This document shows, piece after piece, positions 9,163-13,498 of a stretch of DNA of 64,000 nucleotides. The notes under the pieces were generated by a model. That model made no database searches, was not told the origin of the DNA, and worked only from the letters and a program-made list of their open reading frames with translations. Origin of the DNA: Escherichia coli (GTDB lineage: Bacteria > Pseudomonadota > Gammaproteobacteria > Enterobacterales > Enterobacteriaceae); assembly GCF_003334405.1 (NCBI RefSeq), contig NZ_QOWM01000002.1, one strand, 5' to 3'. The position numbers and the translations under genes were made by a program. Position 1 is the first letter of the stretch, and each line of letters begins with the position of its first letter.

Positions 9163-10227
9163 CTAGTTATAGGTGATTTTCAGGATTACGTCTTTACTAA
9201 ACGGTCCCTCAACAACCGTTTCTGCCGGGTTCGCACTCAGTTCTGCCCTGAATGGTGCGGTGACCGAAGGCGCACTAGACGATGAAAAAGAAGCAAATTG
9301 TGAGAAGCGGTTAAATTCCGTTGCTGTTCCATCGTTATGAAATATCTTCAATAGCAGACCATTACCTATATCCAGATGGCTATAATCACTCAAAATATCC
9401 GTAGTGAAAAAACTCCCTAAAATATTAAACTGCTCAGTACAGGCCGCACCCGGATCTTTGGTCATGACTACGCTAAACGTCTCACTCACGCTGGTATTTT
9501 TAATTGTTCGGGAATTTATTTTACCAAAGTCGACAACGCCATCAGCTGGTTCCAGATCAACATTAACAAAGCAGTCAAGGACATGAATGTTATTTAATCC
9601 GCGAATCCTGAAGGTCAGATTTTTATCTACTTCTATAGCACCTGCTCCGCTCATACCTTTAAATTCAAGTGCTATATATTCGTCAGGTAATACAAGTTTT
9701 TTATTTACTTTATTGGCATTTTTAGCTAGCTTAATATATAGCTGCACTCGTACTGGAAAAGTTACTGATAATTGCGGTTCAGGACCGCCACTACAGACTG
9801 CGGGCTTTTTGTAGCCATTCCCGAAGGTTCCGGCTCCTTTTATATCAATACATACAGGTGCTGCAATAGGTAGTGGAGATGTAGAATCATAATCAACCCC
9901 ATTATAAGTTACACCGAAAGTATAAGAGTTTTGATTATAAAAGTCTTGACCTGATGCTAACAACATCATTATATTTGCCCATGCAGATGGGTATTCTTCT
10001 CCTGGAGATGGGCCTGGTAGTGCATTATTACAGAAAACATTCATAAAATATTCACTGCTTTGCCAGATTTTATCACCTTTTTTACCATCGCTGGGGATAG
10101 AGATTCTTGGTACGTAACCAATGACAACGGTATTTCCACCTTCATGTTCAGCATAGCAGTCCATTGCCCATGCAGGTAATGAACTAAAACCCATAAAAAA
10201 AGTAATAACAATTAACAAGTAGCGCAT
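9163..10227 (-). CDS. yqiI: Fimbrial tip adhesin-like protein YqiI
   Basis: 354-aa ORF with signal peptide (MRYLLIVITFFMGFSSLPAWA); last gene of chaperone-usher cluster. Confidence 0.8.
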   Translation of the reverse strand: MRYLLIVITFFMGFSSLPAWAMDCYAEHEGGNTVVIGYVPRISIPSDGKKGDKIWQSSEYFMNVFCNNALPGPSPGEEYPSAWANIMMLLASGQDFYNQNSYTFGVTYNGVDYDSTSPLPIAAPVCIDIKGAGTFGNGYKKPAVCSGGPEPQLSVTFPVRVQLYIKLAKNANKVNKKLVLPDEYIALEFKGMSGAGAIEVDKNLTFRIRGLNNIHVLDCFVNVDLEPADGVVDFGKINSRTIKNTSVSETFSVVMTKDPGAACTEQFNILGSFFTTDILSDYSHLDIGNGLLLKIFHNDGTATEFNRFSQFASFSSSSAPSVTAPFRAELSANPAETVVEGPFSKDVILKITYN

Positions 10228-10228
10228 A

Positions 10229-10978
10229 TTATTGATCTCGGTTGGCTACAGAAATATTACAAATGTTATTTACTACAGGGCAGTTTATTTCATAAAAACT
10301 TAATCCACCAAAGTCATTGATATAACCCACCTGAAAAGTTGACGGAACATTTTTAAACTGCGTATTTGCATAGCTAAAAGGGGTTACCATTAAGCTTTGC
10401 GTTTGTGGTAACATCGTTACCCCATTTGTTCCGATATAACCCAGCGTAACGTGATAAGGCATCTTATTGTTAAAGCGGATCGAACCGTCATTTCTACGAA
10501 TGATTTCAACTTTTTCGTAAGTCATTACCCCATCGTCTTCTAATTCAATGGCTTTTGGCCGCCAGAATAGTTTCAATGCGTGCTGCATAGTGACTTGCAT
10601 CACATTTTTTTTATCTGTTTTGGGCGGTATTTCTCGCACGTTAAAATAGAAGAGCGTTTCTCTGTCTTTAGGAAGTTGAGCAATTTTTTCCTGAGTTATC
10701 ATTCTTATTTGAATTTGCTCACTGGGATTTAAACGCACCATTGGAGGAACAGTGACAATAAAGTCACGCGATTTATTGCCTTTCGTATCTTCTATCCATG
10801 TTTGGGCCAGATAGGGCAGGTTTTTACTTTGATTAGTAAGTTTTAATGCTTCGCCTTTATCTGACTCATTCATTATGATACGGGTACGATCCGGGATGAT
10901 GGCACCCCAGGCAATGCTGCTCATACAGGAGAGTAATACTCCTGCTGCAATGATATTCTTTGTATTTAAGTAGCGCAT
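10229..10978 (-). CDS. yqiH: Periplasmic fimbrial chaperone (PapD-like) YqiH
   Basis: ORF with signal peptide; start chosen at second ATG (10978), which has AGGA at 8-nt spacing, giving 249 aa; track start 10987 also possible. Confidence 0.85.
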   Translation of the reverse strand: MRYLNTKNIIAAGVLLSCMSSIAWGAIIPDRTRIIMNESDKGEALKLTNQSKNLPYLAQTWIEDTKGNKSRDFIVTVPPMVRLNPSEQIQIRMITQEKIAQLPKDRETLFYFNVREIPPKTDKKNVMQVTMQHALKLFWRPKAIELEDDGVMTYEKVEIIRRNDGSIRFNNKMPYHVTLGYIGTNGVTMLPQTQSLMVTPFSYANTQFKNVPSTFQVGYINDFGGLSFYEINCPVVNNICNISVANRDQ

Positions 10979-10993
10979 TAGTTTCATCCTGAA

Positions 10994-13498
10994 TTAATTT
11001 TGGCTAATACACGGTAAAATAGCCGTTCCGGTGGTTAAGTTGCTGCTATTGGGTGGTTGAATAAAACAAGATTTGTCACCCCAGCGTAAAGCAAGTTTGT
11101 TATCATCCTGAATGCCGTTGAGGTATACAAAGCCGCCATCAGCAACCAGTCCTAATTCTTTGTGGCTGGTTTCATCTTTTACGCTAATCCCCAGTGGTGG
11201 ATGACTACCATCTGCCAGGCGAATAACCCCTATGATTTGGTAGCCCTTGCGGGTATCAAGTTTGGCGTAGCCAATAGCACCCTCGGTTAAGGTGGTGGTG
11301 ATAACCGAGTTTTCGATATCCACATTTTCTGGCAGATTTCGGGTATCAACACTTAATGATGTTGTTATGTAACTGCTGACTGATGGAATAACTCCGATGC
11401 CATACCGATTAGTTACCGCGCGTTTATTGTTCAACGGAATATCTTCAGTGCCGTCTGCGTCGATCATAAAACGCGAGTCAGCACTACCGCTATAGTCGTG
11501 GAAAGCGGCACCGTGGCGAGTCGCAGTGAATGAACCATTCCAACTGGCATTCAGAGAATAATAACTGTCTCGCTGTGATGTACCGGAGAGGTAGAGTCGA
11601 CCGTTCTCGGTATTATGCTGATAACTGGCGCGTAGTGACGCTTTCATATCTTTGAATTCATCATTGTCGCCTGAAGCAGAAACGCTCCAGGAATTATTTC
11701 GATCGGAAGAGTCATACCACGAAGCAGTATGCGAAATCTCATTATCCTGATTTCGTTGCATACCATAGCTCAATGTTCTACTAGTTCCCCAGGGAATCGA
11801 AATATTTAGGTACAGTTGATCCTGGTTGTCTTCTTCCCAGTTTATTCGGCTAAATGTTAGAGAAGTGGAGACGTTTTTTAATGGCCCGATATCAAAATCG
11901 CGGCTAAGTGATAATGAATAATTCACATTACTGCTGGCGTCCCAGTAAGTATTACGAGCCAAACTTACGTATGTATTTAACCTTAATGATTCAAGATACT
12001 GGTTAAACGTGACAATATAACTCTCTTTTTCATTCTGATAATTCGTGTAATGGTTAGTGTCATTGATATATTCATTCATTGTCACAAAGTTTTTATCAGA
12101 GAAACGGTAACCAGCGAAAGTGAGCTGGCTACCGGTAGATTCAAAACGTTTTGAATAGTTAGCGCGGTAGCTATAACCCGTTTCTTTATCCTGATTATGC
12201 AACTGAGCATCAGATCGTGTGACATCAAAAGATAATGAACCTAATGAGTTAAGGTTAAAACCAACGCCGGCAGCCAGAGATTGATAATCACGGTTTGTTA
12301 AAACTGAACCACCATACAGGGATACATTGTTCAGCCAACCCCATGAGAATTCACCAGTCCAGAAGAAGGGTTGTTGTAAGGAATCACCACCAACGCTGGT
12401 CGGTTTACCCATAGCAGTGGTGTAGCGAATCTGCCCTTTACGCGTCAGATAAGGAATACTATTAGATGCAACTTGCCATTGCGTAACGCGTCCGTCCTCT
12501 TCTTCAACCTTGACGTCAAGTTGCCCCTGTAATGTATTGAATAAATTGGTAATAGCAAATGGGCCTGGAGGAACATTTTCTTGATAAATAATACGGTTGT
12601 TCTGTGAGACAGTGACCTTTGCATTCGTTTGTGCGACACCCGTGATTTGCGGTGCGTAACCACGTAGGTCTGGCGGTAACATATTCTCATCGCTTTTCAA
12701 CGAAATGCCAGAAAAATGGAAAGAGTCGAAAATAGAGGATTCAGTATCGTATTGACCTATAGTTAGTTTTGCATTCATTGCTGGGATTGGGCGAAACAAA
12801 TAAATACGCGGAAAATCCAGGTTGGTCGCCTGGCTTTTGCCATTGTTAAATGACTGATCGTACTGGTAATCAGTACGCAGGCGCCAGGCCCCAAGATTAA
12901 CCCCAGCCTGCCCATAGGAACTTATATTTTGCGAATTATCGCCCTGATGTGGTGCATAATGAGAGGCATATAAATTGTAGTCAAGAAATGCCCCAGCAAT
13001 ACCATGATTCCAAAGTTCAGGAGGCGTCCAGTTTGCATCTTTGTATTTTAACCATGCCTGAGGTGCAGATATGGATAATTGCATTTTCCCTTTATCGAGA
13101 TAAGTTGTAATTTGTTTTTCTTTTTCGATAGGGTAACAACCATCGATCAGGTTTTGCTGAGTTTTTTCAATAAATTCATCAGTAAATCCTAATAATGTTA
13201 ATTGCTCTGGTGTCACGCAAACTGCAGTTTGGTTATCAATTAATACCCATTGGAGGTCAAGGTGGATTGGCGTCCTCTTATTATTAATCAGAGTACTTAG
13301 TGAATATTTGCCGACGGGTAATTGGCCATCAGTTTCAAATTGGGAAAGGTTAACGTTTTCACGATCTTCGGCTTCGATTAAATCTTTGTTGAATTCAACG
13401 GCATAAGCTGACGCACAACCAATGATGATAACGGATAATGAACAATAAATATTTTTAATCAATTCGCTTATTGTGGTTAATTTTAATTTTTTATACAT
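10994..13498 (-). CDS. yqiG: Fimbrial outer membrane usher YqiG, uninterrupted
   Basis: Single ~834-aa ORF with usher-family character (beta-barrel-like, C-terminal Cys pair); track start 13507 is GTG, first ATG at 13498; no IS insertion. Confidence 0.85.
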   Translation of the reverse strand: MYKKLKLTTISELIKNIYCSLSVIIIGCASAYAVEFNKDLIEAEDRENVNLSQFETDGQLPVGKYSLSTLINNKRTPIHLDLQWVLIDNQTAVCVTPEQLTLLGFTDEFIEKTQQNLIDGCYPIEKEKQITTYLDKGKMQLSISAPQAWLKYKDANWTPPELWNHGIAGAFLDYNLYASHYAPHQGDNSQNISSYGQAGVNLGAWRLRTDYQYDQSFNNGKSQATNLDFPRIYLFRPIPAMNAKLTIGQYDTESSIFDSFHFSGISLKSDENMLPPDLRGYAPQITGVAQTNAKVTVSQNNRIIYQENVPPGPFAITNLFNTLQGQLDVKVEEEDGRVTQWQVASNSIPYLTRKGQIRYTTAMGKPTSVGGDSLQQPFFWTGEFSWGWLNNVSLYGGSVLTNRDYQSLAAGVGFNLNSLGSLSFDVTRSDAQLHNQDKETGYSYRANYSKRFESTGSQLTFAGYRFSDKNFVTMNEYINDTNHYTNYQNEKESYIVTFNQYLESLRLNTYVSLARNTYWDASSNVNYSLSLSRDFDIGPLKNVSTSLTFSRINWEEDNQDQLYLNISIPWGTSRTLSYGMQRNQDNEISHTASWYDSSDRNNSWSVSASGDNDEFKDMKASLRASYQHNTENGRLYLSGTSQRDSYYSLNASWNGSFTATRHGAAFHDYSGSADSRFMIDADGTEDIPLNNKRAVTNRYGIGVIPSVSSYITTSLSVDTRNLPENVDIENSVITTTLTEGAIGYAKLDTRKGYQIIGVIRLADGSHPPLGISVKDETSHKELGLVADGGFVYLNGIQDDNKLALRWGDKSCFIQPPNSSNLTTGTAILPCISQN

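Follow-up and report, generated by a model that had tools for sequence, protein, structure and literature searches.

A 64-kb Escherichia coli segment with an uninterrupted yqiG usher gene, very probably from a strain outside the K-12 lineage

In Escherichia coli K-12 MG1655, the fimbrial usher gene yqiG is interrupted by an insertion sequence (IS), and an intact copy raises the question from which lineage it is derived. Such a copy is present in a stretch of 64,000 nucleotides from E. coli contig NZ_QOWM01000002.1, the whole of which is referred to as the window, where positions 9163-13498 plus ygiL upstream form the ygiL-yqiGHI chaperone-usher operon. From the comparisons described here it appears highly probable that the window belongs to a natural E. 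coli strain with a K-12-like haplotype, probably of phylogroup A, which lies outside K-12 and carries the ancestral, uninterrupted state of a 'Yqi-like' operon of the pi type.

The annotation of MG1655 lists yqiG (b3046) as a pseudogene in two fragments, the first ending at 3186095 and the second beginning at 3187432. They are split by the 1331-bp element IS2I (3186096-3187426) carrying insC5/insD5, and the IS2 insertion that a first-pass annotation of the window had given for this gene in MG1655 is thereby confirmed. At the junction, MG1655 reads ...CCGTTAT, followed by IS2 and then by GTTATCATCATT..., while the window reads ...CCGTTATCATCATT... at the same point. The insertion point is located after nucleotide 71 of yqiG, within codon 24 and within the hydrophobic N-terminal leader of YqiG, presumably a signal peptide. 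GTTAT is duplicated on both sides of IS2I in MG1655 and present once in the window, which thus shows a clean unoccupied site, and the lone 'gap' reported by BLAST at the junction is an artefact that stems from the target duplication. IS2I together with the GTTAT duplication in yqiG, taken as indicative of the K-12 lineage, was found in MG1655, C600, J53, and NCM3722 and is missing from the window. Translation of yqiG from the ATG at 13498 yielded a protein with a single terminal stop, in agreement with the uninterrupted usher frame of about 834 aa noted before. An in-frame GTG nine bases upstream (at 13507) accounts for the 837 aa given in the list of open reading frames (ORFs).

In a direct alignment, the window matched positions 3135523-3200858 of MG1655 (NC_000913.3) in reverse complement, with full colinearity. 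The identity is 99.98%, obtained in two alignment blocks of 99.982% and 99.963% which meet at the IS2I site. Besides IS2I, 13 substitutions and no insertions/deletions distinguish the two sequences in 64 kb, so that the K-12-like gene order proposed for the window is fully retained. The end-to-end alignment detected no insertion of the window's own relative to MG1655, and IS2I is the sole mobile element annotated in the matching MG1655 interval. In the matching intervals of the two closest strains, VG48B2 and P13-6, no transposase is annotated, and the window aligns to both without a gap. Searching the window with IS2 DNA and with the InsC and InsD proteins resulted in chance matches only, none longer than 16 nt. 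Because the window is colinear with MG1655, aligns gaplessly to IS-free relatives, and gave no hit in the IS2, InsC, and InsD searches, it contains no IS element, as the lack of IS-like ORFs in the 64 kb had indicated.

The 13 substitutions fall into two groups. At eight sites (9838, 12254, 13295, 29188, 33456, 44438, 51735, and 54134), scattered across 46 kb, the window has the allele of VG48B2 and P13-6 and MG1655 differs from all three. The three of these sites within the operon, 9838, 12254, and 13295, are synonymous, leaving an identity of at least 99.9% to MG1655 in this region. The remaining five are singletons of the window, all silent, three being synonymous and two intergenic (Table 1). 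Silence of all five fits natural polymorphism under selection and not sequencing error or mutagenesis. Four of the five singletons are changes from G:C to A:T.

To place the window among known genomes, three overlapping parts of it were searched against 5,426 complete RefSeq genomes of E. coli, and none of the parts was matched perfectly. A perfect match of 4,336 bp scores 8,008 bits, which scales to about 46,167 bits for 25 kb. The best scores of 46,161, 46,150, and 38,771 bits, the last obtained with a part of 21 kb, correspond to one, three, and two mismatches, respectively. For window positions 1-25000, 1,581 records matched at 99% identity or more and 3,894 at 95-99%. Identity of at least 99% combined with colinearity to K-12-like E. 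coli chromosomes was thus observed, and positions 9163-13498 are 100% identical to many E. coli chromosomes with ygiL-yqiGHI annotations. The closest genomes compared in full were those of VG48B2, an isolate from a Swiss farm environment, and P13-6, a French pig isolate of serotype O141:H4, differing gaplessly from the window at six and eight sites in 64 kb, respectively. These counts are composed of the five window singletons and the private changes of each strain.

For four of the singletons, 27081, 37543, 44247, and 55988, no full-length exact match to the window allele was obtained in the complete genomes. The fifth, 8130T, was detected in two of them only, AST19 and ES9. Both were rejected as relatives, since they diverge strongly from the window, with 276 and 115 differences, respectively, over 49 kb, and have no other singleton in common with it; the presence of 8130T in these strains is a coincidence.

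Taken together, the source is an E. coli with a common K-12-like haplotype (phylogroup A type) at this locus and represents a separate lineage outside K-12, probably belonging to phylogroup A. The absence of IS2I, the 13 single nucleotide polymorphisms (SNPs), and the eight non-K-12 alleles support the earlier proposal of an E. coli lineage other than MG1655. The comparison with MG1655 did not yield 100% identity to K-12 together with an intact yqiG there.

Three other explanations were considered. The first-pass annotation had left room for a close relative of E. coli. A Shigella lineage would be such a relative, and Shigella genomes were not part of the E. coli collection searched. With six to eight gapless differences in 64 kb to E. 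coli strains from a farm and a pig, such an origin is very unlikely. In addition, Shigella chromosomes are rich in IS elements, of which the window has none, and an exact 41-mer containing 44247A was not matched among the GTDB species representatives. The attribution to E. coli proper therefore stands, and the alternative of a related species is not needed.

The window could also be a K-12 derivative lacking IS2I after precise excision or after genome engineering of the kind that gave the IS-free 'clean genome' strains. The identity of 99.98% to MG1655, the same gene order, and an empty site exactly as precise excision would leave it are all compatible with this idea, which is nevertheless extremely improbable. 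Substitutions at eight scattered sites cannot be undone by the loss of an IS, and the window is therefore not a descendant of MG1655 minus the element. In C600, J53, and NCM3722, K-12 sublines which branched off early during laboratory propagation, the 14.24 kb around yqiG, IS2I included, show 100.000% identity to MG1655, whereas the window differs in the same interval by four SNPs. The pattern of the three window-specific coding changes, all synonymous, is also that of natural polymorphism. Finally, short-read assemblers can drop repeats such as IS2, and only one of the five singletons, 8130T, recurs among the complete genomes, but that the differences are errors in K-12 reads with a collapsed IS can hardly be given any credence, since omission of the element would normally interrupt the contig or retain both target copies instead of a single GTTAT and an open frame, eight differences coincide exactly with alleles of other genomes, and random errors would mostly alter amino acids.

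Several points weigh against assigning the window to a natural, probably phylogroup A strain with a working operon. The genes used for multilocus sequence typing and the Clermont marker genes are located outside the window, so that phylogroup A is not formally assignable from 64 kb, and local recombination could make the segment unrepresentative of the genome. The genome-wide markers of K-12 (rph-1, rfb-50, the K-12 prophages, and the history of F and lambda) are likewise situated beyond the borders of the window. No complete genome equals the window exactly. Expression of the operon is presumed, and other chaperone-usher operons of K-12 are reportedly treated as cryptic in published work.

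The window shows the site before the IS2 event. The yqiG::IS2 junction was detected in 357 of the 5,426 complete genomes, and the 60 listed are all laboratory or K-12-type strains. Strain LD27-1 (NZ_CP047594.1), isolated from feces in China, contains IS2 at exactly the K-12 site in yqiG, with the GTTAT duplication and an element 100% identical to IS2I. LD27-1 and MG1655 have the derived SNPs at 13295, 29188, 44438, and 54134 in common; the four SNPs private to MG1655 are not found in LD27-1, which has five private SNPs of its own in the 64 kb. Judged from these sequences, IS2::yqiG appears to mark a small clade including K-12 and LD27-1 and not K-12 alone. Because LD27-1 has the same insertion and four K-12 SNPs and diverged thereafter, the insertion would be older than the isolation of K-12; it probably predates the split of K-12 and LD27-1 and was probably a natural, not a laboratory event. 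IS2 would have transposed into codon 24 of yqiG in an ancestor of K-12 and its nearest wild relative, duplicating GTTAT and detaching the first 23 codons, which belong to the presumed signal peptide, from the remainder of the gene. That the insertion took place in nature, ahead of the isolation of K-12, and, at the same time, the source lineage of the window is unrepresented among the complete genomes may be put at an even chance on the alignments available.

Automatic RefSeq annotation calls a usher gene of 2,466 nt (821 aa; WP_000016375.1) in C600, J53, NCM3722, and LD27-1 despite IS2. The start of this gene is placed inside the right end of IS2, whereas the curated record of MG1655 specifies a pseudogene.

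Other interruptions of the operon were also encountered. In NCTC86 (NZ_LT601384.1), an IS2-like element is inserted in the middle of yqiG (12949-14278 of the extracted locus). It is 97.6% identical to IS2I, has the opposite orientation, and is accompanied by a target duplication, CTAAC, corresponding to about positions 12053-12058 of the window. NCTC86 was therefore rejected as a carrier of the K-12 insertion, the element being independent and at a different site. Transposases of IS5 or ISKpn26 are annotated in the yqi region of D53-1, JNQH497, and JNQH498, and CP8-3_Sichuan harbors an uncharacterised extra segment of about 1.2 kb in the part that matches window positions 1-25000. Counting K-12 and NCTC86, IS elements have struck the yqi operon at least three separate times. 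In AST19 and ES9, yqiH is a pseudogene by an internal stop (38023-38772) and a frameshift (10229-10977), respectively, and in ES9 IS1 is found beside a truncated yqiK (7205-7902; all coordinates of the extracted loci). The lesions in these two strains likewise indicate that the region is decaying in some lineages. From the insertions in K-12 and NCTC86, those of the IS5 type, and the yqiH pseudogenes of AST19 and ES9 it follows that the operon has been inactivated repeatedly.

The ORF list of the window contains three frames on the minus strand in this region, 9163-10227 (354 aa), 10229-10987, and 10994-13507. With ygiL included, the operon has the standard arrangement, in which ygiL, yqiG, yqiH, and yqiI encode a subunit, the usher, the chaperone, and a large subunit and putative adhesin, respectively, and all four frames are intact (Table 1).

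Table 1. Features of the ygiL-yqiGHI operon and singleton alleles of the window
Feature	Window position	Strand	Description	Basis or remark
yqiI	9163..10227	-	fimbrial protein, 354 aa, putative two-domain tip adhesin	ORF and annotation WP_001269802.1
yqiH	10229..10978	-	periplasmic fimbrial chaperone, 249 aa	ORF and NCBIfam chaperone matches
yqiG	10994..13498	-	intact outer-membrane usher	834 aa from annotated ATG at 13498
empty IS2 target	13428..13432	-	single GTTAT (ATAAC on + strand)	yqiG codons 23-25
ygiL	13558..14109	-	fimbrial subunit gene, 183 aa, first in operon	NCBIfam NF007276 and annotation
singleton T	8130		yqiJ	synonymous
singleton A	27081		between mdaB and ygiZ	intergenic
singleton T	37543		ftsP	synonymous
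singleton A	44247		between yqhD and yqhC	intergenic; divergent yqhC-yqhD promoter region
singleton A	55988		hybB	synonymous

Domain searches are in accordance with this arrangement. YqiG contains the three domains of an outer-membrane usher, PapC_N (PF13954, residues 35-177), the Usher pore (PF00577, 195-747, E = 1.8e-190), and PapC_C (PF13953, 759-811), and its best NCBIfam matches are ushers of the StdB type. The DNA of yqiG is the same in VG48B2 and P13-6, where it is annotated as fimbria/pilus outer membrane usher WP_000277103.1. Next to the usher gene, a chaperone and a subunit are encoded: YqiH matched the NCBIfam chaperones StdC, SteC, and StfD (E about 1e-44 to 1e-41, under the equivalog cut-offs) and is annotated as WP_001269824.1 in the identical DNA of P13-6, and YgiL reached 384 bits against NF007276, for which the cut-off is 189. 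YqiI was assigned to no NCBIfam family in the profile search. Its only Pfam match is a weak one to Fimbrial in the C-terminal part (residues 228-354, E = 0.0024), the N-terminal half being uncharacterised, and its putative role as adhesin is suggested by protein size and position in the operon. An ORF of 81 aa on the plus strand (12445-12690), antisense within yqiG, has no supporting annotation in the compared genomes and was treated as spurious.

Based on established knowledge of chaperone-usher systems, YgiL and YqiI would cross the inner membrane via the Sec pathway into the periplasm. There, YqiH would cap the subunits and complete their fold, and the YqiG pore would polymerise them and secrete the fibre. 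The operon of the window should thus work as an ordinary chaperone-usher system. The sequence shows its intact frames and the complete usher domains, whereas expression and assembly of fimbriae are inferred.

Outside the operon, two of the sites at which MG1655 differs affect proteins. At 29188, codon 170 of qseB specifies serine in MG1655 and LD27-1 and proline in the window and the other compared strains. At 44438, codon 26 of yqhC (MG1655 annotation) specifies glycine in MG1655 and LD27-1 and glutamate in the window and the others; this site is inside yqhC even under the shorter RefSeq gene model. The alleles of MG1655 and LD27-1 at both sites are thus non-synonymous. Two tandem segments of about 358 bp, 5584-5939 and 5959-6316, are 90.8% identical and correspond to sibD/ibsD and sibE/ibsE of MG1655, which are type I toxin-antitoxin loci. 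Between exbD and yghA, direct repeats of about 85 bp with 96.5% identity (48714-48798 and 48827-48910; about 113 bp apart) are probably elements of the repetitive extragenic palindromic (REP) type; they are also present in MG1655. The gene yghX (51783-52667) is present as a pair of ORFs (51832-52257 and 52257-52667). A frameshift in yghX is annotated for VG48B2, P13-6, and LD27-1, and the MG1655 record gives a pseudogene; this defect is common to the compared strains and not specific for K-12.

The strain difference at yqiG has already been published, and the inference that the window is not from MG1655 is correct but routine. K-12 coordinates, pseudogene status, and IS content should not be assumed for the window, whose Yqi-like operon is potentially functional, unlike that of K-12. 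Mildly new is only that the insertion is common to a diverged isolate from outside the laboratory, so that it is probably older than the domestication of K-12.

Among known systems, the K-12 locus (b3043, b3046-b3048) is organized in the same way, with the same four genes between glgS and ubiK in 64 kb of colinear DNA, the position of the locus being identical in the window. In MG1655, codon 24 of yqiG is interrupted by IS2I and a second copy of GTTAT, both of which are absent from the window. In VG48B2 and P13-6, the operon DNA is identical to that of the window, and the differences are limited to a few SNPs in other parts of the 64 kb. In the genome paper of E. coli W, ygiL-yqiGHI is tabulated as a cluster of the pi type with the entry 'IS2::yqiG' for K-12, whereas W, B, and Crooks are marked '+' for an intact operon (PMC3032704). 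Wurpel et al. treated 'Yqi', associated with phylogroup B2, and 'Yqi-like', associated with A, B1, D, and E, as separate types (PMC3559732). The operon of the window is presumably of the Yqi-like type, the type name being taken from the latter study and the pi assignment from the former. Yqi, or adhesin I of extraintestinal pathogenic E. coli (ExPEC adhesin I, EA/I), of avian pathogenic and uropathogenic B2 strains was shown to play a part in adhesion and to help the bacteria colonise the chicken lung (PMC2771359). The EA/I gene cluster encodes a related chaperone-usher system, in which the genes for subunit, usher, chaperone, and adhesin follow each other in this same order, but it represents a separate allele class of phylogroup B2, and functional data refer to the B2 type only. 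The 1,475 records showing 90-95% identity to the window region may be this B2-type allele. The Std, Ste, and Stf fimbriae of Salmonella, belonging to the pi clade, ranked first in the NCBIfam search, with StdB (695 bits) for the usher and StdC, SteC, and StfD for the chaperone. The scores are under the equivalog cut-offs (695 versus 1289 bits for StdB), and these systems are therefore homologues and not the same fimbria.

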